In this document: positions 17,533 through 46,427 of the stretch, piece by piece | Position numbering within the stretch: the stretch's first letter is position 1 | Layout: each line of letters starts with the position of its first letter | Origin: Candidatus Nanoarchaeia archaeon | GTDB taxonomy: Archaea; Nanobdellota; Nanobdellia; Woesearchaeales; JANQNE01 | Length of the DNA: 64,000 nucleotides | Direction of reading: 5' to 3' | NCBI GenBank assembly: GCA_028279725.1 | Contig: JANQNE010000007.1 | Span: forward strand, 99,406 to 163,405 | Translations under genes and position numbers: made by a program | Notes under the pieces: generated by a model | Database searches by the model: none | What the model saw: only the letters and a program-made list of their open reading frames with translations | Told to the model about the DNA's origin: nothing

Positions 17533-18033
17533 TCATTTCTTAATTATTTTAGAAACAAAATAAGGCAGTACAAACCCAACAACATACACGATAGCTACTG
17601 GCAAGGGGTCTGTCGCAGGTATCTCTAAAAAAGCAACCTGTGAAGCAAGCACATTGGAGAATCTTACGATAATAAACACATTAACGACTGCAATTATCGG
17701 GATGAACATCCCTGCAATCAAATGATGATGTGTCTCCATATTATCTATATCTTTTATCAGTATGTTAAACAAAAAACCGAACAAAGCTGCAATCACAAAT
17801 ATTATAACAAAAAGAACAACTCCCTGCACCATAAACAAGAAAGGTATCAGAACAAAAGAGACAGCTATATTCCCTAACAATGTAATCACTAAAGCTGTCC
17901 AGTACACAAAAAGATCAAGCCCATGCTTATATTTTGTCTTCTGTATTCCAGCTTCTATTATCCTCTCTGCATGATCAATCTCATGCTCTAACCATCCCTT
18001 TTTCCTTAACTTGTGTTTTGTGTCCTCTTTCAT
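17533..18033 (-). CDS. Hypothetical integral membrane protein.
   Basis: Soluble N-terminus followed by 3-4 TM helices. The stop/start overlaps the MinD-like gene. Confidence 0.4.
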   Translation of the reverse strand: MKEDTKHKLRKKGWLEHEIDHAERIIEAGIQKTKYKHGLDLFVYWTALVITLLGNIAVSFVLIPFLFMVQGVVLFVIIFVIAALFGFLFNILIKDIDNMETHHHLIAGMFIPIIAVVNVFIIVRFSNVLASQVAFLEIPATDPLPVAIVYVVGFVLPYFVSKIIKK

Positions 18034-18803
18034 TTAGCAAAAAAATCAGAATACTCTAACTTTACCTCTTTTAATTCACCGCTTCCATCTTCATAAACTT
18101 GCCCGATTATCTTAGATGCCAGATACTTAAACTCCTTCCCTATGGCTGTATTTGGATAAGCATAAGCTACTGGCTGCTTTGTTCCTAACGATTCCAATAC
18201 TTTCTTATCATTGCTTATTGCAGCTATTATTGGTTTTTCAAGAATTGTCTCGATGTTCTGTAAGCTCAGCTCAAAACTTTCCCCTCTGACTTTGTTGATT
18301 ATGACTCCAAGCACATTAGCTCCGTTCTCCTCTGCAAAAGCTATTGACTTCAAAGCCCCTGTAACTGCATTAAGATCTGGTGTTGTAACAACAATAACAT
18401 CATTAACAGCTTTTATCACACCTCTTGCTTCCTCATTTATTCCGCCAGCACTGTCAACTAAAACGATCTCTGTCCTGTCCTTAAGCAGTTTGATATTATT
18501 CTTTAAGCTTTCAAAGTTATGGCTTCCTGCTGTCTTGTACTTTATATCAGAAGGTATGATCATTAACCCAGAAATATGCCTGTACGCAGTATTTGTTATA
18601 TCTCCTTTTCCATCAAGAACATCATTCAGGTCTATCTTAAAGCTTGGAATCCCCAAACTCAGCCCAAGATTAGGTGTTGCAAGATTCCCATCCACAGCAA
18701 CAACATGCCTTCCAAAATTTGTAAGGGTGATAGCTAGATTCAAAACACAAGTTGTCTTGCCAACACCTCCCTTACCAGATATAATCCCTATAAATCTAGT
18801 CAT
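18030..18803 (-). CDS. MinD/ParA-family P-loop ATPase.
   Basis: Deviant Walker A GIISGKGGVGKTT. The ORF track extends to 18866. The likely start is the MTRFIGIISGKGG methionine at about 18803, which leaves an 8-nt overlap with the upstream gene. Confidence 0.75.
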   Translation of the reverse strand: MTRFIGIISGKGGVGKTTCVLNLAITLTNFGRHVVAVDGNLATPNLGLSLGIPSFKIDLNDVLDGKGDITNTAYRHISGLMIIPSDIKYKTAGSHNFESLKNNIKLLKDRTEIVLVDSAGGINEEARGVIKAVNDVIVVTTPDLNAVTGALKSIAFAEENGANVLGVIINKVRGESFELSLQNIETILEKPIIAAISNDKKVLESLGTKQPVAYAYPNTAIGKEFKYLASKIIGQVYEDGSGELKEVKLEYSDFFAK

Positions 18804-19248
18804 TATACTTTTCCTCGATATACTCCACAAATGATTTGATATATTCAAAATGCTCATATACAACATCTATGTTTATTATCACTTCTTTTCCATCTACATC
18901 AGCAGTCATCTTCACGTGCCTCCTAAACTCCTGATCCTTCTCATAATTAGCTCTCATTATCTTCTTCAATGATTGTCTAAAATCTATTGCATCAACAATT
19001 TTTTTATCGTCTTTATATACATCTTTCACGATATTAAACCTCAATCCGCTCTGTGTAGGGACATCCTCTATCTTGCCTTCTTTCTTCGCTTTATCGATCA
19101 GCCCATCCATTATAAAATCGATGCAATTCATCAATCTTTCAACTACACTCCTAAGAACATCAACTGTACGGGTATACTTAAGGCTGACATAGATCAGATG
19201 ATCCATCCTTTTCAGCTCTTCCTTTGCATCATCTAAATAGTCCTTCAT
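18796..19248 (-). CDS. Hypothetical helical protein, member A of a tandem paralogue pair.
   Basis: 150 aa. KRMDHLIYVSLKYTRTVDVLRSVVERL aligns with the next gene's RKADHMISVTYPLVKDTKLLLAVMENI. A second block, EFRRHVKMTADVDGKEVII, matches EFVRNDKFVICDNDYNMKAI. Confidence 0.4.
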   Translation of the reverse strand: MKDYLDDAKEELKRMDHLIYVSLKYTRTVDVLRSVVERLMNCIDFIMDGLIDKAKKEGKIEDVPTQSGLRFNIVKDVYKDDKKIVDAIDFRQSLKKIMRANYEKDQEFRRHVKMTADVDGKEVIINIDVVYEHFEYIKSFVEYIEEKYND

Positions 19249-19714
19249 TCTTACTGGTGATGTTATGTATCTCTTCTATAAATAGCTTTGCTTTAGAGAT
19301 ATGGCTCTTTACCTCATCAACTGATATTGCCTTCATATTATAGTCGTTATCACATATCACAAACTTATCATTCCTGACAAATTCCACAGGGCTTTTCTTA
19401 TGCTGCTTTACTGTATTCTTTACTTCCTGGATAAGCTCAACATAGCTCTCATCTATCTTATGTCTCCTTGTGCATCTTGCCCTGAATATGTTGAACTTGC
19501 TGTCAAAATTATCCTGGAACCTAGGAATCTTCTTGAAAAGGAACTCATAATAAAGCAAAGAGCTCATCGTATTCGTCAACCCTAGAAATATGTTCTCCAT
19601 AACTGCTAAAAGCAGCTTTGTATCTTTGACTAAAGGATATGTTACAGAAATCATATGGTCTGCTTTCCTAATGTTAAGTTTGGCAGCCTCCCTCAACTCC
19701 TGGAATCTTTCCAT
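19229..19714 (-). CDS. Hypothetical helical protein, member B of the tandem paralogue pair.
   Basis: 161 aa. It overlaps member A by 20 nt. See the paralogy note above. Confidence 0.4.
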   Translation of the reverse strand: MERFQELREAAKLNIRKADHMISVTYPLVKDTKLLLAVMENIFLGLTNTMSSLLYYEFLFKKIPRFQDNFDSKFNIFRARCTRRHKIDESYVELIQEVKNTVKQHKKSPVEFVRNDKFVICDNDYNMKAISVDEVKSHISKAKLFIEEIHNITSKNEGLFR

Positions 19715-27535: not shown

Positions 27536-28666
27536 TTACGCAGCTCTTTGGTCTTCTTCAGTATCTTCAAAATCTTCTGGTTTTCCTTGAGCTAGATTTT
27601 CCATATCACTATGTTCTTGTTCTTCTTTAGTATAATTCTTTTCCGTAAACTCTCCTTCTTCCTCTTCTGACTTCTCTTCCCTTTCTTCATGAGTTTCTTC
27701 AGGTTCTTCCTTCGGTTCCTCTTCCTCTGCTTTTTCTTCCTTAGGTTCTTCCTGCTTTGGAGGGACATAACCTTCAGGATGGATCATCTCTTCAATCCTT
27801 TTCTCGACTTCAGGAGCAACTTCCTCAGTTTCAACTTTCGCAACGATCTCATCAGCTTTCTTCTCTTTATCTTCCTGCCTCTTATTGTCTTCTTTTCCTT
27901 CTGTGATTATCTCAGGCTGCAATTTCTCTTTTATCTCTTTAACTTCTTTATTCCTTTCCTCTTCATCTTCAGGTTTTTCTTCATAAGTTTCTAATTTAGT
28001 CTTAGCTCCAAAATCATCAACAATATCAATCTCTTTCTCCAATTGTTCAGCCTTCTCTTTCTCCTCTCTCATCTTCTGTTCCATCTCTTCTTTTTTAGCT
28101 TTGGCCTCTTCAACTTTCTCTTCTGTATCTTTTATCTCTCCTTCTCTTTTTTCTATAGCATCCCTTACCTCTTCAGGAACAGCCTGCCTGAAAGTTTCCC
28201 TTGTCTGTTCACCTTTAGGCAGATCAAAATAATCAAAGAACTTCTGGGTCAGCTTTATCGACCTTGTCCTTCCGTAGACTTCTCTTGCGATAAAACCAGC
28301 AGCCTCCAGCTCTTTCATATGCTCATAAGCTTTATTATTTCTTATCTTGATGACATCAGCCTGTAATATTGGATATTTCCAGGCAATGACTGCTAATGTT
28401 TCCATTATAGACTTATCAAGTTCAGTTTCAGAGACTATATTCTGCACAATTCCTAAATATTTCTCCCTTACAGCTAATTTCCACGTATCTCCCTCGTTGT
28501 CAAGCATCAGGGAGCTATCTTCATCGCCATATTTCTCCTTTAATTCCTCAAGGCCTTTCTTTACCTGAGAAAGTTTAAGGTTTGTCAGCTGTACGATCTC
28601 ATCCTCTCTCATCTTTCTTCCGGATGAAAACAGCAAAGATTCTACTTTATTTGATTCTTCACTCAT
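27536..28666 (-). CDS. scpB: Segregation and condensation protein B (ScpB) with a long acidic K/E-rich tail.
   Basis: N-terminus SLLFSSGRKMREDEIVQLTNL with tandem winged-helix regions. About 200 aa of E/K low complexity at the C-terminus. Confidence 0.65.
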   Translation of the reverse strand: MSEESNKVESLLFSSGRKMREDEIVQLTNLKLSQVKKGLEELKEKYGDEDSSLMLDNEGDTWKLAVREKYLGIVQNIVSETELDKSIMETLAVIAWKYPILQADVIKIRNNKAYEHMKELEAAGFIAREVYGRTRSIKLTQKFFDYFDLPKGEQTRETFRQAVPEEVRDAIEKREGEIKDTEEKVEEAKAKKEEMEQKMREEKEKAEQLEKEIDIVDDFGAKTKLETYEEKPEDEEERNKEVKEIKEKLQPEIITEGKEDNKRQEDKEKKADEIVAKVETEEVAPEVEKRIEEMIHPEGYVPPKQEEPKEEKAEEEEPKEEPEETHEEREEKSEEEEGEFTEKNYTKEEQEHSDMENLAQGKPEDFEDTEEDQRAA

Positions 28667-29240
28667 TTTTTAAAGAATATGTCCCCTTTTCTTCTTGTAT
28701 TATTCCTAATTTAACAACTGTAGCTAAGAACTTCTTCATCTCTCCCTCAACTACTCCAGTTATCTTAGACAATTTCTCCAGATCTTTCGGTCCGTTATGC
28801 AGGGCAACAGTAACAAGATTCCTAAGCAGTGTATTTGTATTCTTCCTCAGGAACTGGTTCTCATTCCTTGCCTGCTTTATAGCCATATCAACATTATGCA
28901 GCTTAGCCTGCAGATCATTGAAGAAATTTGAAAGGTCATTATACTTTATCTTAAGTTCCTCTGGCTCGATAACTTCAATTGAAGAAGGCATATAATCAAA
29001 ACTGAACCCCATCAGAGCAGGCATCCCTTTAGCCAAGAACTCAAGTTCAACAAAAGCAGCCCACATATTATCCTGTTCTTTTGCATCTGCAAACTTCTCA
29101 TTAGTAATCTCAAAATCTTTATCTTCTTTTATCTTATCAACATACTCCTTCAGTGTCTTCTCAACATGCTCTTTCGGCTTTCCAAGTATTTCTATTATCA
29201 CTCTTGCTTTTATCTTCTCAGGTCCCTCTTCATCTGCCAT
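28659..29240 (-). CDS. Hypothetical protein with a C-terminal winged-helix, possibly a short ScpA/kleisin-like partner.
   Basis: It overlaps the scpB start by 8 nt. The C-terminal LEKLSKITGVVEGEMKKFLATVVKLGII is wHTH-like. The assignment is by synteny only. Confidence 0.3.
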   Translation of the reverse strand: MADEEGPEKIKARVIIEILGKPKEHVEKTLKEYVDKIKEDKDFEITNEKFADAKEQDNMWAAFVELEFLAKGMPALMGFSFDYMPSSIEVIEPEELKIKYNDLSNFFNDLQAKLHNVDMAIKQARNENQFLRKNTNTLLRNLVTVALHNGPKDLEKLSKITGVVEGEMKKFLATVVKLGIIQEEKGTYSLKNE

Positions 29241-29278
29241 AGTATAAAATGAGTACTCTCAAGTTTATATAGTTTTCG

Positions 29279-31366
29279 TCAAATATCCTTCCTATGCACC
29301 AGATATATCAAAAGAATAACAAGCAAAAAAACAATCCCTCCTAAAACTAGCTCCTTAGCTTTATAAGAAGTAGATTGGTATATTACTCTCGGACCATCGC
29401 CAGTCGCTAAAACGATTCTGCCAGTCATGCCACTTACATCTTTTCTCAGGCTGTTTTTTTCAAAAAAATCCCCATCCAGATACTCATTTTCTCCAACATC
29501 AACAAAGCCAGTCTCATCAACTGATATTTCTTTCTTTTCAAAATCAAGAACACCATTATTCTCTAATCTTATAAAGAACACGTTCCTTTCAGAAGCAGCA
29601 TCAAAATTAAAACTCAACTGTTTTTCCTCATCTTCCTTCAGATCAACATCCAGATTCTTACTTTCAAAAAAAGTATCTACAAAAACATCCAGTCCCCTTA
29701 TCTCCTTACCATAATTTTTGATCCTTGGATAAAGTCTCAACTGCCCTTCGCTAAAATTAACACCAACATCTTCTATTTTACAGCTTATTCCTTGTTCAGC
29801 CTCAACAATTATATCTCTGGTTATCTCTTTCAAGGTCTTCTGATTATCTTTTCTTATCTTAACCTTAAACTTATACAGGCCCGGATCAGCACTTTCAATT
29901 TTATTTGATAATTTAACAACTAAAGAATCCCCTTCCCTGATAAAATCCTCTTTCTTATTCTCTTCTCTGTCCCCACTATACACTTTACTTCCTCTATAAA
30001 CATAGCTCCAAAACTCAACCTTAACTCCTGAATCATCATTATTCATCATCTCAACTCTGCTTTCAAACTTCTCTCCAACCCTTACTTTTTCAGGTAAAAA
30101 CAACAGACTATAATCAAATTTTCTTTTGTTTGCTTTATCTTCCTCACTAAGATAAACCTCCTCACACATCTCATCAGTTATATCTTCAACCATGAGATCA
30201 AAACTGTCTTCTCTATCAAGGCCCTCAATAAATAGCGTATAATTTCCATCCTTATAATCATAATCACAGTTAGGTTTTAGCTGAACAGGTATTGTCAAAG
30301 TATAATCAGTAAAATCTGTATAAACGTTTGTCTTAGACTCCTTGCTTATCCTATCACCTTTATCATTTTCAACCCAGAGCGCAATGGAATTTTTGGTAGA
30401 AACTCCTTTGTAAACAATAACATTAACTCTTAAAGTCTGGCCAAACTTAGCCTTATTATCGGTTCCAAGATCATATATCTTCTCTATCTTGAGATAAGAT
30501 TCATTGCTTTTCTCTTCTTCTTTTACTATTATAACTTTTGAATCCATATCATTGCTTGAATCAGTATCATTACATCCAGGAAATATCACAGTATTTATCA
30601 CATAACTTCCTTCATCAAGATTTGGGGAATAACCATATGTCTTGTGATTTGTGATCTCATTCGTCAGATTTGCATAGCTTTTAACCAGTTCTCCGGAACT
30701 GCTTCTTATCTCTTTAAACAAAGTGACATTGCTCTTATTCCCATGCTTTCTTTTAATATAGATGTCAAAATCAAAATTATTTCCATCATCAAAAAAAGAT
30801 TGATTGGTAATTACACTAACACTAAAATCGCATCCTGTCTTTTCAGCTTCATAGCTTCCGTCATTGCTATAGCCGCAAGTCACATTCCCTTTATCCCAGG
30901 AATCGTTGAGCAAAAACCAGCTATTTCCTTCATCAGTCTCATTATAAGAAAAAGAATCAATTAAACTCCCCTCAGAATCATATAGGTACAAAGTATCTCC
31001 ACTATTGCTCAATCCATTTCCTATTGAGCTATCATCAACATATAATCTCAAAACATTATTAGCACAGTCAAAATTATCATATGTTCTTGTAGAGTCATCA
31101 GTTATCAATGCGTATGCTCCTGCACCCAATATAGTTCCACTCCCAAAATATAATCCACCTTCAATTGTATCATTATCATTAGAATCTCCAATTATCCATC
31201 CGCTCAGATTAACACCTGAACTTCCGCCATTATACAGCTCAACCCATTCATTCAGATTTTCATCTGCAATAGGGTCTGCCATAATCTCATTTATCAAAAT
31301 GTCTGCTCTAACTACTGAAACTAGAAATAATACAAAAAATCCAAAAATTGCGATTTTTTTGTACAT
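29279..31366 (-). CDS. Secreted surface protein with an N-terminal lamin-tail-domain (LTD)-like module and a C-terminal TM anchor.
   Basis: Signal peptide MYKKIAIFGFFVLFLVSVVRA. LTD-like ILINEIMADP...NEWVELYN...VNLSGW. C-terminal hydrophobic LVLGGIVFLLVILLIYLV followed by HRKDI. Confidence 0.5.
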   Translation of the reverse strand: MYKKIAIFGFFVLFLVSVVRADILINEIMADPIADENLNEWVELYNGGSSGVNLSGWIIGDSNDNDTIEGGLYFGSGTILGAGAYALITDDSTRTYDNFDCANNVLRLYVDDSSIGNGLSNSGDTLYLYDSEGSLIDSFSYNETDEGNSWFLLNDSWDKGNVTCGYSNDGSYEAEKTGCDFSVSVITNQSFFDDGNNFDFDIYIKRKHGNKSNVTLFKEIRSSSGELVKSYANLTNEITNHKTYGYSPNLDEGSYVINTVIFPGCNDTDSSNDMDSKVIIVKEEEKSNESYLKIEKIYDLGTDNKAKFGQTLRVNVIVYKGVSTKNSIALWVENDKGDRISKESKTNVYTDFTDYTLTIPVQLKPNCDYDYKDGNYTLFIEGLDREDSFDLMVEDITDEMCEEVYLSEEDKANKRKFDYSLLFLPEKVRVGEKFESRVEMMNNDDSGVKVEFWSYVYRGSKVYSGDREENKKEDFIREGDSLVVKLSNKIESADPGLYKFKVKIRKDNQKTLKEITRDIIVEAEQGISCKIEDVGVNFSEGQLRLYPRIKNYGKEIRGLDVFVDTFFESKNLDVDLKEDEEKQLSFNFDAASERNVFFIRLENNGVLDFEKKEISVDETGFVDVGENEYLDGDFFEKNSLRKDVSGMTGRIVLATGDGPRVIYQSTSYKAKELVLGGIVFLLVILLIYLVHRKDI

Positions 31367-31507: not shown

Positions 31508-31948
31508 TTGGGGAATGGGATGAGAAACGATAATACTTCAGGAAGAAGATGTACTGTAATTCTAAAAAAAGGTCATGTTACTAAATTCTATGAGACAAAT
31601 AGTCTTCAGGAGCAAGTCAGAGAGTATAGGATGAGCTTTGGACCAGAACTTACGATATCAGGAACAGTAATAAAAGAAAATAACGGCTACTTATCAGTCT
31701 TATCAGATATAGATGGGATCGGATCCGAACATCCTTTATGTGTTGAAGAATCACTTAACTGCAACCCAGTAGAAAAACAAGACGGACTTGAACATAGTGT
31801 TGCAAACATCTTTCATAACTTACACAACTGTACAAGGCCTGATTTCAAACCAGATCAGGGAGTTGAAACAAGACCTTCTGAACTTTCTCCAGTAGATACT
31901 CAATACAAAGTAGAAATCTATCAGAGAGATATTCTTATGAAACTTTAA
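31508..31948 (+). CDS. Hypothetical protein.
   Basis: 146 aa with several cysteines. No recognisable domain. Confidence 0.3.
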   Translation: MGNGMRNDNTSGRRCTVILKKGHVTKFYETNSLQEQVREYRMSFGPELTISGTVIKENNGYLSVLSDIDGIGSEHPLCVEESLNCNPVEKQDGLEHSVANIFHNLHNCTRPDFKPDQGVETRPSELSPVDTQYKVEIYQRDILMKL

Positions 31949-33372
31949 GCTGCTTGCTTTATTCTTTTGGCTAAAACAGTTGCCAGATAATTAGAAGTGC
32001 CTGTAACTTGCACAACATCAAACATGACACCAATATAATCTATCTTATATTTAGATTCAATAAACTCATAATTAACTCCTGATTTTGCTGTTGTAAAATG
32101 ATCATGATTGTTTCCATAAGTCAAAAAAGAGAAATAAGCTATCAGGTTCTTGAAATTGTTGTTGCTTAAATTAAAAGAATCAGTTAATATTCCGTTTTTC
32201 TTCGCAATCCCCCTCAAAACTTTTCTCCCATAGATATCAGTATTGTTCTTTGCTTCAACATGCTCTATCCTGGAGATAAAAGCACCATACTCCTGCCTTA
32301 TTTTATTCTCTAATAAAGAAACTATCTTGGAAGCAACCTCTCTTGCATTGCCTGATGTATAAGATTCTGCAAATTGCCTAAATTGCTTTTTCTCTTCTAC
32401 CCTATCTTGCGTAAATTTTGAAGGTATTTCAGGAACAAAAAGCCTTACTCTTTGTATATTACTTAATGCATCTTCAATCTCTTTCCTAAGCTCATCAGCT
32501 ATCACTAGTATTGACTTTGTAAGGTTTGCTTTCTTCTGCTCTCTGACGATTATCCTATCCAGTGTATTCTTTTGCTGTGATAATGTATTGTCCATCAGTG
32601 AGATCATTTTTTGTTTTTGTTCTTGTATCCTTCTGAAAACACCATAATCAATCCTGCTTGATCCAAACAACTGCCTTATCTGCAGCGTGTATATGCTTTT
32701 CACAGAATTATACCAGCTTTTTATCTGTTCGATCTGCTCTTCCAATGATTCTCTTAAGACCTTAACTTCTTCTGACAACTTTTCATCGATCTCTTTCATC
32801 TCCAAAAGTTCAGAAAATAAGGTGCCGACCATATCTCTTCTCTTATGTAATTTTCCGACTATTGAATTAAAAACTGATTCGAGATCTTTAGTATTTTTTA
32901 TATCATTCATGATACTGATCAGCTGCATAACATATTCAGAATCTTTTTTGATCAGCTTCTCTGTTATTTTTTCTTCCCTGTATTCTTCTTTTTCCTCTTC
33001 AATCAGACTTTCTATCTTAGAAAAAAATAACTTATCTAGTCTTGTTAAAGCATACTTCTCAAAAAAAGCTTGTTTTTCCGCCTTACTCTGAATCTTAGCA
33101 AGATGACTGACAATTTTTGGCTCTCTTCGTAAAGATGAGATAAAATTCTTAGCATTATTAAGCTCCTTGACTATAGAAACAGCTATCTCTCTTTTATTAT
33201 CTAACTTCTGCCTAAGAGACTTAGCATGTCCCACTATCTCTGCTTCTATCTTCTCATCAATTCTCTCTCTTTTTAGAAAATCTCTCAATCCTCTCAGAAC
33301 TTTCCTCTTTATTTCAGCAGGATCAGCAGTAGAATTTGCTGAACCCCTTATCAGGTTTCTCAAAAATTCCAT
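31945..33372 (-). CDS. Hypothetical coiled-coil protein.
   Basis: 475 aa. Largely helical and K/E-rich. Confidence 0.35.
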   Translation of the reverse strand: MEFLRNLIRGSANSTADPAEIKRKVLRGLRDFLKRERIDEKIEAEIVGHAKSLRQKLDNKREIAVSIVKELNNAKNFISSLRREPKIVSHLAKIQSKAEKQAFFEKYALTRLDKLFFSKIESLIEEEKEEYREEKITEKLIKKDSEYVMQLISIMNDIKNTKDLESVFNSIVGKLHKRRDMVGTLFSELLEMKEIDEKLSEEVKVLRESLEEQIEQIKSWYNSVKSIYTLQIRQLFGSSRIDYGVFRRIQEQKQKMISLMDNTLSQQKNTLDRIIVREQKKANLTKSILVIADELRKEIEDALSNIQRVRLFVPEIPSKFTQDRVEEKKQFRQFAESYTSGNAREVASKIVSLLENKIRQEYGAFISRIEHVEAKNNTDIYGRKVLRGIAKKNGILTDSFNLSNNNFKNLIAYFSFLTYGNNHDHFTTAKSGVNYEFIESKYKIDYIGVMFDVVQVTGTSNYLATVLAKRIKQAA

Positions 33373-33405: not shown

Positions 33406-34404
33406 TTACTCCAAAAAACCAGCTATCTTCTCTCCACAGCTGCATTTTCCCTTCTCAACATCATTCTTCAATATATTATACCCTTTTCTCTCGATTGCAA
33501 TCTTTCCAGATTCAGGACAATATGTATTCTCACCTTCTTCAGTAAGCAGGTTCCCGATATAAACATAATTCAATCCAACTTTCATTGCAATCTCCCTTGC
33601 TTTCAGCAAAACATCTTCTGATGTTGGAGATATCTCACTCATCTGATAATATGGAAAAAATCTTGAAAAATGAAGAGGAATATTCTTCCCAACATTCTCA
33701 AATATCCATCCACACATCTCTCTAATCTTATCAAGATCATCATTCTTTGTTGGGATTATCAAATTAGTAATTTCCATCCATGTTTTCATCTTACTTATTC
33801 TTTTTATCGTATCCAACACAGGCTGAAGATGAGCCCCAGTGACAGAAGTATAGAATTCTTCAGTAAATCCTTTAAGATCAACATTGACTCCATCAATATA
33901 CCTATATAACTCTTTTAATGGCTTTTCATTGATATATCCATTTGTAACCATAACATTCTTCAGTCCTTTCTTATTGGCTAACTTAGCAGTATCATATACA
34001 TACTCAAAAAATATGCTTGGCTCATTATACGTATAGGCGATAGATGAACAATTATTTTCTAAAGCCTGCTCAACAACTTCTTCAGGCATCAACTTCTCTC
34101 CCATTATCTCTCTTTCCTGGGATATCTGCCAATTCTGGCAGTGCTTACACTTAAGATTACAGCCAACAGTTCCGATTGAAAACACATCTGTTCCAGGCAA
34201 AAAATGAAATAAAGGCTTTTTCTCTATAGGATCGATAGAAATTGAAACAGGCTTTCCATAAACTAAAGCAACTAACTTACCTTTCTGATTCTCTCTGACA
34301 CCACAAACACCTCTTTCGCCGTCAGCGATAACACACTTCCAAGGGCATAACTCACACTGCACAACATCATTTTCTTTCTTAACATAATGCATTGCCTCTT
34401 TCAT
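33406..34404 (-). CDS. Radical SAM enzyme, AmmeMemoRadiSam-type / PflA-like activase.
   Basis: CNLKCKHCQNW is a CxxxCxxC cluster. An N-terminal extra cysteine cluster is CELCPWKCVIADGERGVCGVR. Confidence 0.6.
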   Translation of the reverse strand: MKEAMHYVKKENDVVQCELCPWKCVIADGERGVCGVRENQKGKLVALVYGKPVSISIDPIEKKPLFHFLPGTDVFSIGTVGCNLKCKHCQNWQISQEREIMGEKLMPEEVVEQALENNCSSIAYTYNEPSIFFEYVYDTAKLANKKGLKNVMVTNGYINEKPLKELYRYIDGVNVDLKGFTEEFYTSVTGAHLQPVLDTIKRISKMKTWMEITNLIIPTKNDDLDKIREMCGWIFENVGKNIPLHFSRFFPYYQMSEISPTSEDVLLKAREIAMKVGLNYVYIGNLLTEEGENTYCPESGKIAIERKGYNILKNDVEKGKCSCGEKIAGFLE

Positions 34405-34465
34405 AAGCCATCACAATTAAAATCAACTATTAAAACTTTGTTGTCTCGTCTATAAAAAAGTATCC

Positions 34466-34502
34466 ATTTTAGAATAGTTAAAACATGTTAGTATTCTAAA
34501 AT
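34466..34502. promoter_or_regulatory. Imperfect palindrome, a candidate transcription-factor site between divergent genes.
   Basis: 11-nt perfect inverted arms ATTTTAGAATA ... TATTCTAAAAT separated by 15 nt that contain AACATGTT. It lies just upstream of a TATAAAAA box. Confidence 0.3.
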
Positions 34503-34566
34503 ACTTAGAAAAACTTTAATAAGGAGAAGCAATTTATAAACAGAATATTAGGTGGAGGTGTATTAG

Positions 34567-35025
34567 ATGGGGTTATTAAATATGTTTGGAAAGTCTAAAG
34601 AGAAGAAAGAAGGCTTTGAATTCCCTGAAAAAGAAGACTTAGACATCCCTCCAGCTCCTCCTTCTGTCACTGAAGAACCAACAGAACTTCCTAGCTTCCC
34701 GGTAAAAGAAGAGAAAGTAGAAGTTCCAGAAATTTCTCCTGTTGATGAAGCTGAGGACGAGGCTGTTCAGATCGTAAAAGAAGGTCTTGAAGAAAGGGAA
34801 TCTTTAGAATTAGCAAAGCCGCTGTACATAAAATATAAGATGTACAAAGCTATGTTAGATGAGGTTAGTCAGATTAAGATTATTCTGAAAGAATCAGAAG
34901 ATACCTTGACAAGACTTGCTGATTTTAAAGACGACGAAGACAAGGAATTTGCAAAGTGGCGCAGGGAACTGGATGACATTCAAAGAAAGCTTATCTATGC
35001 TGATAAAGTTTTATTTGGCAAATAA
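34567..35025 (+). CDS. Hypothetical small helical protein, paralogue 1 of a triplet, with an acidic P/E-rich N-terminus.
   Basis: The C-terminal 70 aa, KPLYIKYKMYKAMLDEVSQIKIILKESEDTLTRLADFKDDEDKEFAKWRRELDDIQRKLIYADKVLF, align position-by-position with the next gene. Confidence 0.4.
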   Translation: MGLLNMFGKSKEKKEGFEFPEKEDLDIPPAPPSVTEEPTELPSFPVKEEKVEVPEISPVDEAEDEAVQIVKEGLEERESLELAKPLYIKYKMYKAMLDEVSQIKIILKESEDTLTRLADFKDDEDKEFAKWRRELDDIQRKLIYADKVLFGK

Positions 35026-35046
35026 AAATTAAAAGGTGGTACTAAA

Positions 35047-35289
35047 ATGGAAGAACTTCAAGGAGAAACTATGCCGGTCTTTGTTAGGGTCGATGAATAC
35101 AAAGACGTGCTAGATGTTATGAATCTTATCAAAAGCAAGATTGGTGAAGCTAGAGAAACACTGGCTAAGCTGAACGATCTAAAGAATGAAGAAGACGCAG
35201 AACTAGAGCTTTGGCACACTAGCTTGGAAGAAATCGAAAGAAAAGTAGATTTTGTTGACAAGACACTGTTCGAACCATCTGCTCTTTAG
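35047..35289 (+). CDS. Hypothetical small helical protein, paralogue 2.
   Basis: MPVFVRVDEYKDVLDVMNLIKSKIGEARETLAKLNDLKNEEDAELELWHTSLEEIERKVDFVDKTLF. Shared motif P-x-F/Y-(I/V)-(K/R)...YK..LD...IK...E...TL..L.D.K.EED.E...W...L..I.RK....DK.LF. Confidence 0.4.
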   Translation: MEELQGETMPVFVRVDEYKDVLDVMNLIKSKIGEARETLAKLNDLKNEEDAELELWHTSLEEIERKVDFVDKTLFEPSAL

Positions 35290-35733
35290 GTGAACAATAT
35301 GGCTGAGAAAAAAGAAACAGATGTTTTCTTTGTTGGTATTAAGGACCCTATAGAGATCAGAAGAAGTATTCTTGAATCACTAAAAGGAACTGTTGAAGAT
35401 CTTCAGAGATTCGAGAGATTCAAAGCAGTAAGGGAAGAAAAAGCCAACACAGCTGCTGCATTAAAAGGTCAGGTTAAAGAGATCCAGAAGCTTATCAATA
35501 AGCTGAAATCAGAGCTTCCAAAAGGAGACTTAAGGATCAAGCTTGGACTTGAACACGCAGCTGTTGAAGAAGAAAAAGCTAAGAAAGAAGCTGCTAAAAA
35601 AGACAAGAAGAAAAAGAAAGCAAAAAAAGTAGTTAAGAAAGAAGTAAAAGTAAAGCCAAAGGAGCTTTCTGAGCTTGAAAAGCTAGAATCTGAACTTAGC
35701 AACATAGAATCTGCCCTAGGCAAGATTTCTTAA
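35290..35733 (+). CDS. Hypothetical small helical protein, a divergent paralogue 3 with a lysine-rich C-terminus.
   Basis: DVFFVGIKDPIEIRRSILESLKGTVEDLQRFERFKAV follows the same pattern. A KKEAAKKDKKKKKAKK tail. Confidence 0.35.
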   Translation: MNNMAEKKETDVFFVGIKDPIEIRRSILESLKGTVEDLQRFERFKAVREEKANTAAALKGQVKEIQKLINKLKSELPKGDLRIKLGLEHAAVEEEKAKKEAAKKDKKKKKAKKVVKKEVKVKPKELSELEKLESELSNIESALGKIS

Positions 35734-35800: not shown

Positions 35801-36000
35801 GCGGAGGTGCCGGAGATTGTCGAGTTCATGAGACTCGCGACTGGAATGGTCAAACGGGATGGACTCAAGGCATTTGAGTGTTGAGTGCTCGTAAAGAGTG
35901 CGATGAAAATATCAATGTAAGTCATCCATTGGCTTAGTGCCTACGAGGGTTCGAAAGGTTGACGATGTAATCGGCAACAACGAAAGACCCTTCCTCCGCA
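35801..36000 (+). tRNA. tRNA-Leu(CAA) gene interrupted by three introns: D-loop about 31 nt, anticodon loop 37/38 about 54 nt, T-loop 59/60 about 31 nt.
   Basis: Acceptor GCGGAGG / CCUCCGC plus A73. After removing the three intervening segments the D-arm is CCGGAG|UGGUCAAACGGG, identical to the tRNA-Leu(GAG) at 14.7 kb. Anticodon stem AUGGA / UCCAU with loop CUCAAG|A. Variable arm UGGCUUAGUGCC identical to the other Leu. T-arm GAGGG-UUCGAA|A-CCCUU. Each junction can be drawn as bulge-helix-bulge. The T-loop junction shows a 4-bp UUCG/CGAA helix flanked by 3-nt bulges. The D-loop junction shows CCGG/CUGG. The mature length is about 84 nt. A T-run follows. Confidence 0.55.
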
Positions 36001-36011
36001 TTTTTTATTTT
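36001..36011 (+). terminator. Oligo-T terminator after the multi-intron tRNA.
   Basis: TTTTTTATTTT immediately 3' of the acceptor end. The RNase J ATG is 16 nt downstream. Confidence 0.35.
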
Positions 36012-43422: not shown

Positions 43423-43698
43423 TTATTCTGCCTCTTCTTCTTCAGGGTTATAAGATGGAACTGCAGCCTTAGAGATCACCATTATATCTCCTATAGCTTT
43501 GACAAGCTGATGAGGTACAATGACTCCTTTTGCACTTCCCAGAACTTTTGTTAAAAATGAGTTTCTTGTTGCCTTTACTTTCCAGCCAAAAATCTTGTTT
43601 GTTGTCAGTATTGTCTCTTCAATATCTCCAAAATAATCTCCAGTATCAGTGAAAACCTTCATATCGTAAGTTTCAGAAATTTTCTTCATCTTTAGCAT
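43423..43698 (-). CDS. PRC-barrel-like small protein, tentative.
   Basis: 91 aa. The pattern is typical of archaeal PRC-barrel proteins. Confidence 0.35.
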   Translation of the reverse strand: MLKMKKISETYDMKVFTDTGDYFGDIEETILTTNKIFGWKVKATRNSFLTKVLGSAKGVIVPHQLVKAIGDIMVISKAAVPSYNPEEEEAE

Positions 43699-43816
43699 AT
43701 TTTCTCACCCTCTTATCTTTAGATTGATTATCTTTATTCTAGAGTACTAATACTTTATATACTTTTCTATTCCTTCCGTAAACCTTTTAAAAGCACAGAA
43801 TAAAGCCCATTTAACT

Positions 43817-44527
43817 ATGAAAAATCTCACAATTATAGGAACATCTCATATTGCAAAACAGAGCTTAGATGAAGTTACAAGCACCATAGAAAGAGAAAAG
43901 CCAGACATCATAGCCATAGAACTAGACAGAAGAAGGCTTTTCGCTTTAAAAACAAACAAGAAAAGAAAACTGACTTTCAGGGATATCAGAAGCATAGGAA
44001 TCAAAGGATTCCTGTTTAATGTGATCGGAGCTTACATAGAAAAAAAGCTTGGAAAGATTGTTGGTGTTAAGCCAGGCTCTGAGATGATCTCAGCGATAAA
44101 ACTCGCAGAAAAAAACAAGATAAAGCTTGCATTAATCGATCAAGACATCGCAATAACACTGAAAAGATTCTCGAAAACTTTCACATGGAAAGAAAAATTC
44201 AACTTAGCAAGAGATCTCTTCCGAGCAGTATTTTTCAGAAAAAGAGAGCTAAAAAGGCTTGGAATAACTGATCTAGACCTATCAAAAGTTCCTTCAAAAA
44301 AACTGATAAAAAAACTTTTAGAAAGGGTAAAGACAGACTATCCAAATATCTACAAAGTTCTCATTGAAGAAAGAAATCACGTCATGGCAAACAATCTTAG
44401 AAAATTAATATCACAACACCCAGATAAAAGGATACTTGCAATTATTGGAGCTGGCCATAAAGAAGGCATAGAAGAGCTCCTAAATAATCCTGATGAACAA
44501 ATTACATACTCATTCTCTGTGGGTTGA
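43817..44527 (+). CDS. TraB/PrgY/GumN family protein.
   Basis: N-terminus IIGTSHIAKQSLDEVTSTIEREKPDIIAIELDRRR is the family signature GTSH...ELD. Confidence 0.65.
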   Translation: MKNLTIIGTSHIAKQSLDEVTSTIEREKPDIIAIELDRRRLFALKTNKKRKLTFRDIRSIGIKGFLFNVIGAYIEKKLGKIVGVKPGSEMISAIKLAEKNKIKLALIDQDIAITLKRFSKTFTWKEKFNLARDLFRAVFFRKRELKRLGITDLDLSKVPSKKLIKKLLERVKTDYPNIYKVLIEERNHVMANNLRKLISQHPDKRILAIIGAGHKEGIEELLNNPDEQITYSFSVG

Positions 44528-44669: not shown

Positions 44670-45422
44670 ATGAGGAACTTGATAGATAAGATTAAACGAT
44701 ACTTTGGCTTTAACAGGGCTGAAGTTCAGGCACTGATAATCACGATATTGATTCTTGGTTTTGTTGTTGGATTTAATGATGGAAGCAAGAAGTTTAGCGC
44801 AGCTTCTTGGTTGTTCAATCTGTTCAATTCGATATTGCTTGTTGCATTAGCTCTTTTAGTGCAGCAGTCTTTATTGAGAATAGCCTGTCTTAATTCAGGC
44901 TACAGGCCAGAATACAAGATGTTCTTTTATGGATTATTATTCTGCTTGATCCTTGCACTGGTCTCAAGAGGCAAACTTATCTTCCTTTTGCCAGGATTCT
45001 ATGTAGTAAGGATGCTTGAAGGTCATAGGCTTGGAAAATTTAGGTATGGTATAAAGCAGGAGACTATGGGTTGGATCGCCCTCTTGGGCCCGATATCAAA
45101 TATGTTGCTTGCACTATTCTTCAAAGCTTTGACATATATTCCTGCATTGTCAGCTAACCCTATAATCCAGAAAGCTATTACAGTCAACATGTTATTTGCC
45201 ATATATACTATGCTTCCTATTCCAAACTCAGTTGGCTTATATGTTTTCGCATGGTCAAGGTTAGGATTGGTCTATGTTTTCTCTGCATTTGTGGGATTAT
45301 CACTTATGATCTATTTAGACTTGAACTTATTCATAATAATTTTAGTTGCAGCACTTATAGGTGTAGTTGGATGGGGCATCTACTACATACTTTTTGAACA
45401 GGGAGCGTGGGAGTACATATGA
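44670..45422 (+). CDS. Hypothetical multi-TM membrane protein.
   Basis: About six hydrophobic segments. Confidence 0.4.
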   Translation: MRNLIDKIKRYFGFNRAEVQALIITILILGFVVGFNDGSKKFSAASWLFNLFNSILLVALALLVQQSLLRIACLNSGYRPEYKMFFYGLLFCLILALVSRGKLIFLLPGFYVVRMLEGHRLGKFRYGIKQETMGWIALLGPISNMLLALFFKALTYIPALSANPIIQKAITVNMLFAIYTMLPIPNSVGLYVFAWSRLGLVYVFSAFVGLSLMIYLDLNLFIIILVAALIGVVGWGIYYILFEQGAWEYI

Positions 45423-45805
45423 TAAAAATATTCAGATCAAAAAAAGCAGCAGCACTTGACTACTGGAACAAATGGGCTGAATTCTATACAATCTTATTGT
45501 TAGTTATTGGATTCCTGATTGGAATAACTGTCAGAAGCGTTGCTCTCAACTATGTGATCATCTTCATAGCAGGACTTATGGGTGGAAGACTCCTTCACAG
45601 CAGAAAAAACAAGCATAAGTTCTCTTATTATCTGATTATAATAGGGTTTCTTCTGGGGTATATGCTAGGTTCTGTTGTCTACAACAAGAAGATCATAGCT
45701 TTCCTGTTCCTTTCTGCATTTCTGATTAGTTATTACTTACACGAAAAAGGTATCGTTGAAAAAGCGCTGCCTTTGAAAGACCCTCATAAAGAGCTGTGGA
45801 AATAA
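45407..45805 (+). CDS. Hypothetical membrane protein.
   Basis: Three TM segments. Overlaps the upstream gene. Confidence 0.35.
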   Translation: MGVHMIKIFRSKKAAALDYWNKWAEFYTILLLVIGFLIGITVRSVALNYVIIFIAGLMGGRLLHSRKNKHKFSYYLIIIGFLLGYMLGSVVYNKKIIAFLFLSAFLISYYLHEKGIVEKALPLKDPHKELWK

Positions 45806-45869
45806 TCTTCTTTCAGAAGATTAGACCAAAAAAGAAACCTATAAAAAGAAGGAAGTTTCTTTTTTACGT

Positions 45870-46427
45870 ATGATAGAGAAGATATCTAACTCTGTAAGAA
45901 AGTTTATTGGAAACTCTAACATCTATGTGATCTTACTGGACAAACCAATAGTCATAGACGCTGGAAACAGGGCAGACAAGCAGCTTGTAGAAAAGTTCCT
46001 AGGTAAATTGATAGACTTAAATCAAGTAGAAAAAGTAATATTCACACATCTTCATTACGATCATATCGGAAATTTTGACCTGTTCCCAAATGCAAAATTC
46101 TACGCTTCAAAAGCTGAGATAGAATCTTTCAAAAAAGATCCGATGGGAACTGTTCTTGATGAAGACACAATAGAAAAATTCAATGTAGAACTTCACCCAA
46201 TAACTTCTGATGAAACTTTAGAGGTTATAGAAACACCAGGACACACTGCAGGTTCTATTTGCTTATGGTTTGATAAAGAAAAAGTTCTCTTCTCCGGAGA
46301 TACACTGTTAAAAGGAGGAACTGGAAGAACTGATCTTCCATCATCACAGCCAGAAGAGATGCAGAAAAGTATCCTAAAACTAATAAAATACACTTACAAA
46401 TATCTGGCAACAGGGCATGAGTATTAA
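45870..46427 (+). CDS. MBL-fold metallo-hydrolase, glyoxalase II-like.
   Basis: FTHLHYDHIGN is an HxHxDH motif. 185 aa. Confidence 0.6.
   Translation: MIEKISNSVRKFIGNSNIYVILLDKPIVIDAGNRADKQLVEKFLGKLIDLNQVEKVIFTHLHYDHIGNFDLFPNAKFYASKAEIESFKKDPMGTVLDEDTIEKFNVELHPITSDETLEVIETPGHTAGSICLWFDKEKVLFSGDTLLKGGTGRTDLPSSQPEEMQKSILKLIKYTYKYLATGHEY

Follow-up and report, generated by a model that had tools for sequence, protein, structure and literature searches.

In the present study, we analysed a stretch of 64,000 nucleotides (the window) from Candidatus Nanoarchaeia archaeon (assembly GCA_028279725.1, contig JANQNE010000007.1, positions 99,406 to 163,405), with the focus on three small consecutive genes, here called P1, P2 and P3. 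They form one operon, and by the searches reported below their coiled-coil products match no described family. We tentatively propose that P1, P2 and P3 assemble into a heteromeric coiled-coil scaffold which, in Woesearchaeota-type DPANN archaea, is tethered to the cell membrane at its inner face, a reading to which we give a substantial chance, although a somewhat less than even one. DPANN archaea are abundant, hardly any of them is in culture, and next to nothing is known of their cell biology. The presence of the triad in every sampled Woesearchaeota-type genome, together with a constraint on P2 like that on PCNA and a rigidly conserved promoter element specific to the operon, points to an unnamed core cellular machine. 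The analysis yields a defined protein family (3077 cluster representatives), a model of a three-subunit assembly that can be put to the test, and a 20-bp box which may be used as DNA bait for the first characterised transcription regulator of the lineage. If the complex does organise division or chromosome attachment, it would be a new class of component for FtsZ-based archaeal division.

The P1-P2-P3 operon and its products

The window belongs to a DPANN archaeon with a low GC content (36%); archaeal RNase P and SRP RNAs are encoded in the window, and the nearest database proteins all come from Candidatus Woesearchaeota or Nanoarchaeia assemblies. A preliminary description, made by a model from the sequence, had reported three close-packed plus-strand genes of 152, 80 and 147 amino acids, and these were found as reported. 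The genes, the parts of their products and the signals around them are as follows.

33406-34404, divergent, upstream of P1: radical SAM gene of the AmmeMemoRadiSam type
34551-34560, plus strand: Shine-Dalgarno-like GGTGGAGGTG, read from the sequence, preceding the P1 start codon
34567-35025, plus strand: P1, open reading frame (ORF) of 152 amino acids
P1 residues 1-14: hydrophobic-polybasic N-terminal motif MGLLNMFGKSKEKK
P1 residues ~15-82: acidic proline/glutamate-rich linker with an IPPAPP motif
34813-35022, plus strand: P1 residues 83-152, C-terminal core, homologous to P2
35047-35289, plus strand: P2, ORF of 80 amino acids
35290-35733, plus strand: P3, 147 amino acids from a GTG start, or 144 from the ATG at 35299, which is the form in public databases
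35662-35730, plus strand: P3 residues ~125-147, C-terminal zipper helix
35734-35762, plus strand: T-rich tract TTTTTTTATTTTATTTCTGGTTTTTT, read from the sequence, directly after P3

The gap between P1 and P2 is 21 nt and contains a GGTGG ribosome-binding site, the P3 start directly abuts the P2 stop, and the GGAGGTG ahead of P1 is kept in the loci L081 and L082. Oligo-T tracts terminate archaeal transcription, and the T-rich tract after P3 is probably the end of the operon transcript. A functional link between the triad and the divergent radical SAM gene was rejected, as no more than 24 of 81 loci have this gene next to the triad.

The operon was followed in 80 Woesearchaeota/Nanoarchaeia loci, one genome per species, which were collected by a pattern-seeded scan and in which the three genes were found by iterative searches on the locus ORFs. 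All 80 hold one P1, one P2 and one P3 gene in this order on one strand, near-abutting or overlapping and with P3 directly after P2, and the order is also kept in L081-L085. Compared with the window proteins, the orthologues have median identities of 59% (P2), 33-39% (P1 core) and 42% (P3); PCNA and RNase J of the same loci reach 66% and 53-56%, respectively, and P2, judged by these identities, is about as conserved as PCNA. The 3077 representatives of the P1/P2 core family were obtained at E<=1e-3 in an exhaustive profile search, and the best 150 of them show two architectures only, either short and P2-like or longer with the core at the C-terminus.

The core of P1 aligns with P2 by BLASTP at 38% identity over 66 residues (E 2e-15), and the two family profiles, with 81 orthologues each, match at 99.3% probability (E 1e-20). 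By these comparisons P1 and P2 are true paralogues. BLASTP gave no alignment of P3 with P1 or P2, jackhmmer gave a single marginal cross-match in each direction, and profile-profile comparison with hhalign gave 5-19% probability; a construct joining the N-terminal part of P3 to its C-terminal helix reached 39% in local and 9% in global mode. Since none of these methods exceeded 39%, P3 as a paralogue of P1 and P2 is unproven. The preliminary description had called all three tandem paralogous coiled-coil proteins with a common core of about 65 amino acids. The paralogy and the core hold for P1 and P2 but not for P3. The pattern P-[VIL]-[FY]-[VI]-x-[VI]..Y…L[KD].E[ED]…W…RK…DK.LF, about 70 amino acids long, fits P1 and P2 and does not fit P3, where the motif residues W, RK and DK.LF are not present. 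The consensus given earlier thus describes two proteins and not three, because P3 has no demonstrable relation to the others. The coiled-coil character was borne out for all three.

The strongest hydrophobic periodicity in each of the P1, P2 and P3 families is 3.5 residues, which indicates a heptad coiled coil in all three. The order of parts is also the same in each: a hydrophobic strand-like segment (PLYIKY in P1, PVFVRV in P2, VFFVGI in P3) comes before a heptad stretch of about 30 residues, then 7-10 polar residues form a gap at an equivalent position, and a second heptad run ends the unit. In P2 this central gap (KNEEDAE) holds the near-invariant LKNEEDAELELW. AlphaFold2 (AF2) monomer models predict one helix for P2 (residues 15-75, mean predicted local distance difference test score 85) and, for P3, helices at residues 17-72, 78-107 (lower confidence) and 125-143, and the long helices of the two models match in length.

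In addition to this common build, each protein has parts of its own. The N-terminus of P1 has the consensus M-G-(F/W/L)-(L/F)-x-x-(K/F/L)-K-K-K, also written MG[FWL][LF]..KKKK. Among 80 orthologues, 45 have glycine as residue 2, 63 have F/W/L as residue 3 and 65 have L/F as residue 4, and lysine occupies positions 8 and 9 in 54 and 50, respectively; the median net charge of the first 14 residues is +3. In one large clade (57 metagenome loci) the distance from promoter to ATG is fixed, and therefore the P1 start codon is pinned and the motif is the true N-terminus. This spacing also indicates that the P1 messenger RNA of that clade is leaderless. The linker which follows is 52-218 residues long in the 80 orthologues, with 16% proline, is acidic in 78% of them, and carries short proline motifs, (I/L/V)PxAPP or VPKVPFP. 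Long forms of P1 add only low-complexity linker, and a Pfam scan of ten such forms found no fused domain.

P2 consists of the core alone and has a net charge of about -8. P3, at about +10, is made of a hydrophobic segment, a heptad helix of about 56 residues, a variable lysine-rich linker and a conserved C-terminal zipper helix with the near-invariant sELEKLEsELxxIExKLxxL in an a/d heptad pattern. The P3 linker could be delimited in 53 orthologues, and 74% of these have a basic one; its length ranges from 14 to 101 residues, and its sequence varies by species.

The box upstream of P1

Between P1 and the radical SAM gene, a 37-nt element with perfect 11-nt inverted arms near a TATA box had been reported, and this is exact: the arms ATTTTAGAATA (34466-34476) and TATTCTAAAAT (34492-34502) lie 15 nt apart. 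Perfect 11-nt inverted repeats with a spacer of up to 30 nt number 2 in the window against 1.15 expected (P 0.32); for the 162-nt spacer upstream of P1 alone, the same test gives P 0.006. The half-site is not enriched in the window, no perfect inverted repeat was found upstream of P1 orthologues in the other loci, and the complementarity of the arms falls to 8/11 in the closest relatives, L081 and L082. The view of the palindrome as a chance, unconserved repeat was nevertheless overturned by a promoter alignment anchored at the start codon of P1; the perfect-repeat test had failed because perfect hairpins had been sought and not a box.

The aligned promoters (65 loci) share a quasi-palindromic box of about 20 bp with the consensus TTACTATT-N4-AATACTAA. 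It adjoins a sequence like the B recognition element (BRE), nnAAAG, and then a TATA box, TTTTWAAA, with 6 nt between box and TATA in most loci; AA stands at alignment positions 23-24 in 65/65 and TT at 28-29 in 64/65. Most species have a single box at this place. The window has two, 27 bp apart, and the same layout is seen in L081 and L082, with a second but weaker box in L001 and L004. The palindrome of the window looks like one long repeat because these are two tandem boxes, each nearly self-complementary. The elements of the window promoter, with scores from a position weight matrix (PWM), are listed below; we take the last of them to be BRE and TATA from general knowledge of archaeal promoters.

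34461-34480: distal box TATCCATTTTAGAATAGTTA, containing the left arm (34466-34476), PWM 17.2 bits
34488-34507: proximal box TTAGTATTCTAAAATACTTA, containing the right arm (34492-34502) and abutting BRE/TATA, PWM 20.1 bits
34508-34522, plus strand: putative BRE (GAAAAAC) and TATA box TTTAATAA, invariant in the window, L081 and L082

The matrix, symmetrised and built from 18 sites, was used to scan 817 kb at a threshold of at least 11 bits. It gave 84 matches. Of these, 62 lie upstream of P1 at a distance of up to 160 nt and belong to 61 of the 80 loci, and 3 more lie just inside over-extended P1 ORF calls; a box upstream of P1 is counted in 61-64 of 80 loci. The other 19 matches are as many as chance would give (about 1.5 per 64 kb). 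Furthermore, the exact pattern of box, BRE and TATA matched 57 times in metagenomes, each time with a P1-type ORF 10-45 nt downstream. Because this pattern precedes P1 in 57/57 matches, the box is, as far as sequence can tell, an operator-like site dedicated to the P1-P2-P3 operon, and it is its conservation across species, not the statistics of the bare repeat, that leads us to judge the palindrome real. It also has what is expected of an archaeal operator, being dyad-symmetric, fixed relative to BRE and TATA, kept upstream of the orthologues and rarer elsewhere. The operator-like site of the preliminary description is thus retained as a conserved box in about 64 of 80 loci, but given up as a hairpin, since that symmetry decays among close relatives.

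Since the box sits against the BRE, it is suggested that a dimeric regulator bound there helps or blocks the binding of TFB/TBP. The small archaeal cell-cycle regulators aCcr1 and CdrS have palindromic boxes by BRE/TATA. Like the operators of archaeal transcription factors, the triad box is a quasi-palindromic site of about 20 bp, conserved across species at a fixed distance from the core promoter; it differs from them in that TTACTATT-N4-AATACTAA was matched to no described box and in that it appears to serve one operon, not a regulon. Copies of the palindrome at other promoters had been named at the outset as what would be evidence of a regulon, and no such evidence was obtained, the other matches being at chance rate. 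A regulon including the PCNA and PRC-barrel genes was not accepted either, as those sites are at chance rate or unconserved.

The sites concerned are given here as separate observations. In L008, L011, L013 and L014, which are mutually related, a box-like sequence lies directly downstream of the PCNA TATA (AATATAAATAAG), near the expected transcription start; this position is opposite to that in the triad promoter, and the number of such sites is at chance level. In the window, a PRC-barrel protein of 91 amino acids (43423-43698, minus strand) and a TraB/PrgY-family gene (43817-44527) face a divergent spacer with a box-like TCTTTATTCTAGAGTACTAA at 43731-43750 (14.8 bits, 0.23 such matches expected per 64 kb), which is not kept in 8-9 other loci with the same gene arrangement. 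The PRC-barrel family is that of the archaeal division proteins CdpB1/2. The second perfect 11-nt repeat of the window, AAAAAAGAAAC / GTTTCTTTTTT (45828-45865, 16-nt spacer), occupies the gap between the plus-strand genes 45407-45805 and 45870-46427, where it may form a hairpin of the terminator type.

A proposed membrane-tethered scaffold and its alternatives

Pfam and NCBIfam gave no significant match to P1-P3 of the window, and Pfam searches with each member (76 P1/P2 and 56 P3) returned only scattered coiled-coil noise (Med9, MtrG, Laminin_II, NPV_P10). Sequence-profile searches of PDB with the families gave nothing significant, Foldseek of both AF2 models against PDB gave no significant match (best E 3-4), and no description of the P1/P2/P3 family was found in a literature search. 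The Foldseek check of the core that had been proposed at the outset therefore led to no known family, and the ESCRT-III, prefoldin and SepF analogies offered with it gained no consistent Pfam match and no significant one in PDB or by Foldseek. Snf7 (PF03357) and PspA_IM30 (PF04012) were not among the recurrent Pfam matches of the 132 members and the window proteins, and neither were the DivIVA and ZapA families among those of the P1/P2 members. Prefoldin (PF02996) was hit by 2 of 76 members with a best E of 0.017, and its helix - beta-hairpin - helix topology is not that of the triad, which has a strand-like segment and then one helix.

Likeness to known scaffolds is thus one of layout. P1 has the same three parts as SepF, in that a short N-terminal targeting motif is joined by a flexible linker to a small oligomerising core at the C-terminus (SepF layout: bioRxiv 10.1101/2020.10.06.327809), motif and linker being recognised as sequence features in the 80 P1 orthologues. 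The SepF core (DUF552) is alpha/beta, whereas that of P1 is a heptad helix, predicted all-helical and with no Pfam/NCBIfam match. DivIVA/GpsB and ZapA/ZapB are small, abundant bacterial coiled-coil proteins which assemble at the membrane or division site. The triad proteins are likewise small coiled coils, and their arrangement, with a short N-terminal segment before a long helix, recalls the GpsB/DivIVA N-domain, although the Foldseek match to the GpsB N-domain of S. aureus is insignificant (E 8.7, probability 0.08, TM-score 0.40) and the bacterial proteins are homo-oligomers as against three distinct subunits. The triad would work most like SepF, DivIVA or Zap scaffolds, judged by analogy, while being a member of none of those families.

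A hetero-oligomeric scaffold is to us the most plausible reading of these data. Co-assembly of P1, P2 and P3 is inferred because the gene order is invariant, the helix lengths and polar gaps match, and the charges are complementary (P2 -8, P3 +10). The N-termini of SepF, MinE and ESCRT-III/Vipp1 carry membrane-targeting motifs, and the complex is probably membrane-peripheral because the P1 N-terminus resembles these and is followed by a tether-like linker. In the proposed mechanism, the extreme N-terminus of P1 (MG[FWL][LF]..KKKK) would insert into or bind an acidic membrane and anchor the complex, and the long, disordered, proline-rich acidic linker would connect this anchor to the C-terminal coiled-coil core. 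The core would pair with its acidic, highly conserved paralogue P2 and with the basic helix of P3, which is built in a similar way. The polybasic linker of P3 may bind membrane or nucleic acid, its C-terminal leucine-zipper helix may cross-link complexes or recruit a partner, and expression would be controlled by a dimeric regulator at the dedicated quasi-palindromic operator upstream of BRE/TATA.

Genes kept next to the triad in 30-48 of 81 loci are the ScpB operon upstream and RNase J and PCNA downstream; the divergent upstream operon, kept in 42-48 of 81, encodes a signal-peptide lamin-tail domain (LTD) protein, a winged helix-turn-helix (wHTH) protein and ScpB. These neighbours hint at a cell-cycle context. 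By analogy with the small coiled-coil tethers that serve FtsZ-based division, we consider a structural role most likely, one connected with the cell cycle or envelope, as a division-site, chromosome-membrane or envelope scaffold, and our confidence in any one specific process is much lower than in a membrane-tethered complex.

Several points weigh against this proposal. The P1 motif comprises few residues, and only analogy speaks for its affinity to membranes; complex formation is inferred from sequence and from monomer models, and AF2 monomer models cannot show a P1-P2-P3 complex. Mean-field direct-coupling analysis of the core (408 sequences) gave noisy, inconsistent long-range contacts, and its use to decide between a hairpin and an extended helix was dropped. 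No natural fusion of the P1, P2 and P3 genes was seen in the 80 loci or in the best 150 of the 3077 representatives. The box-like sites at PCNA (5 related loci) and at the PRC-barrel gene occur at about chance rate and point to no process, and the kept neighbourhood may reflect common ancestry within a single taxonomic order and not shared function. Finally, a SepF sequence labelled Candidatus Woesearchaeota stands in the published SepF phylogeny, so that Woesearchaeota already have SepF and an FtsZ tether is not obviously missing (bioRxiv 10.1101/2020.10.06.327809).

Among the alternatives, a nucleic-acid-associated autoregulated module, in which basic P3 would bind DNA or RNA, acidic P2 would modulate or chaperone it and an operon product would bind the box and repress its own promoter, appears unlikely to us. 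A box that precedes P1 in 57/57 matches and occurs elsewhere at chance rate is typical of autoregulation, the charges of P3 (+10) and P2 (-8) are opposite, the polybasic tract and zipper of P3 loosely recall bZIP, and the conserved neighbours ScpB and PCNA are DNA-related. On the other hand, the basic tract of P3 varies across species in sequence and in length (14-101 residues), and in the window a proline (KVKPKE) stands between it and the zipper and the model shows it as disordered, unlike a basic region that reads sequence. No match to a helix-turn-helix, ribbon-helix-helix or bZIP family was found in P1-P3, and the N-terminal motif and long linker of P1 are left unexplained.

It would be about as improbable that there is no joint complex, with P1 and P2 as a duplicated pair, P3 as an unrelated neighbour, and all of them separate small adaptors or chaperones co-transcribed for convenience. 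This agrees with the want of demonstrable homology between P3 and P1/P2 and with the lack of gene fusions, but hardly with an invariant order and tight packing in 80/80 loci despite 30-60% sequence divergence; matching helix lengths, equivalent polar-gap positions and complementary charge are also hard to explain without partnership.

We consider with similar reserve, as improbable, a bolder form of the scaffold proposal in which the triad is an unrecognised DPANN-specific membrane cytoskeletal or remodelling module with an essential cell-cycle task, switched through the operator by a dedicated regulator. The three coiled-coil subunits would here assemble together, be anchored in the membrane and recruit through a C-terminal helix; they would organise the division site, attach the chromosome to the membrane or carry out a comparable task, in a lineage from which ESCRT-III is reported missing. 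DPANN divide using FtsZ (reviews PMC7617429, PMC7619361), and ESCRT-III homologues were not found in them (PMC7619361).

A cryptic, split ESCRT-III/PspA-like remodelling system, with the P1 N-terminus as helix alpha-0, coiled coils that polymerise on membrane and the P3 helix as a MIM1 motif for a disassembly ATPase, is far less probable still. Some P1 orthologues start with MGLFGKKK or MGWLFGKKK, and the N-termini of CHMP3, CHMP6 and Vipp1 resemble such MGLF-type starts. The likeness to ESCRT-III/PspA/Vipp1 comprises the MG(L/F)F-type N-terminus with basic residues, the coiled-coil segments and a C-terminal amphipathic helix past a disordered linker; this helix in P3 (…ELxxIExRLxxL) fits 4 of 6 positions of the MIM1 consensus. 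Against this, the triad has no profile similarity to these proteins, Snf7 and PspA_IM30 did not recur among the 132 members, and the features are split over three proteins. The alpha1-alpha2 hairpin and alpha3-alpha5 core of ESCRT-III do not appear in the AF2 models, which show single helices and not a five-helix core, although a hairpin can escape the monomer model of a coiled coil. DPANN are reported to lack ESCRT-III with Vps4 (PMC7619361), and no MIT-domain ATPase was identified in the 64 kb of this genome that were available.

That the 37-nt inverted repeat is a nucleic-acid hairpin (RNA stem-loop, terminator or attenuator) and not a protein site is scarcely credible: its arms are perfect 11-nt complements, but the flanking genes are divergent, so that it lies upstream of both promoters, each box stays recognisable in L081 and L082 where complementarity is 8/11, most species have a single box and hence no hairpin, and the fixed 6-nt spacing of box and TATA points to recognition at the DNA level.

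Neighbouring genes and other features of the window

Upstream of the triad, an apparent minus-strand operon (27536-31366) encodes a 695-amino-acid protein, then a 193-amino-acid protein and then ScpB. The first has a signal-peptide-like N-terminus, an LTD and a C-terminal hydrophobic stretch resembling a transmembrane segment, and the co-transcription of a predicted surface protein with a condensin subunit is an odd pairing. The second (28659-29240) is MJ0538-like, and its orthologue in L082 has a weak winged-helix match; that this wHTH neighbour is the regulator of the operator is only a guess. Between this operon and the radical SAM gene lies a gene for an apparently coiled-coil-rich protein of 475 amino acids (31945-33372, minus strand), also present in L082; Pfam and NCBIfam gave no significant match to it, and its weak Pfam matches are all to coiled-coil families. 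A number of triad-bearing records (L001, L003, L004, L009 and others) are titled 'uncultured Methanosarcinales archaeon' (TPA metagenome-assembled genomes). Several of these share the same neighbouring genes, and the titles look like mislabelling.

Downstream of the triad, a tRNA-Leu(CAA) gene (35801-36001, plus strand) has three putative introns, at 35816-35846 in the D-loop, at 35870-35923 after position 37 and at 35956-35987 in the T-loop. ARAGORN and Rfam missed it in the genomic sequence; after in silico removal of the three segments, ARAGORN calls tRNA-Leu(CAA). A TATA-like TTTTTTATAATA belonging to the gene stands about 25-35 nt before it, an oligo-T tract follows it, and in L048 an apparently related Leu-type tRNA with one D-loop insertion was seen by eye. 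Elsewhere in the window, at 17533-19714 (minus strand), a MinD/ParA-type ATPase (18030-18866) stands among three proteins of 150-166 amino acids without a family match, possibly a further uncharacterised gene cluster for partition or positioning.

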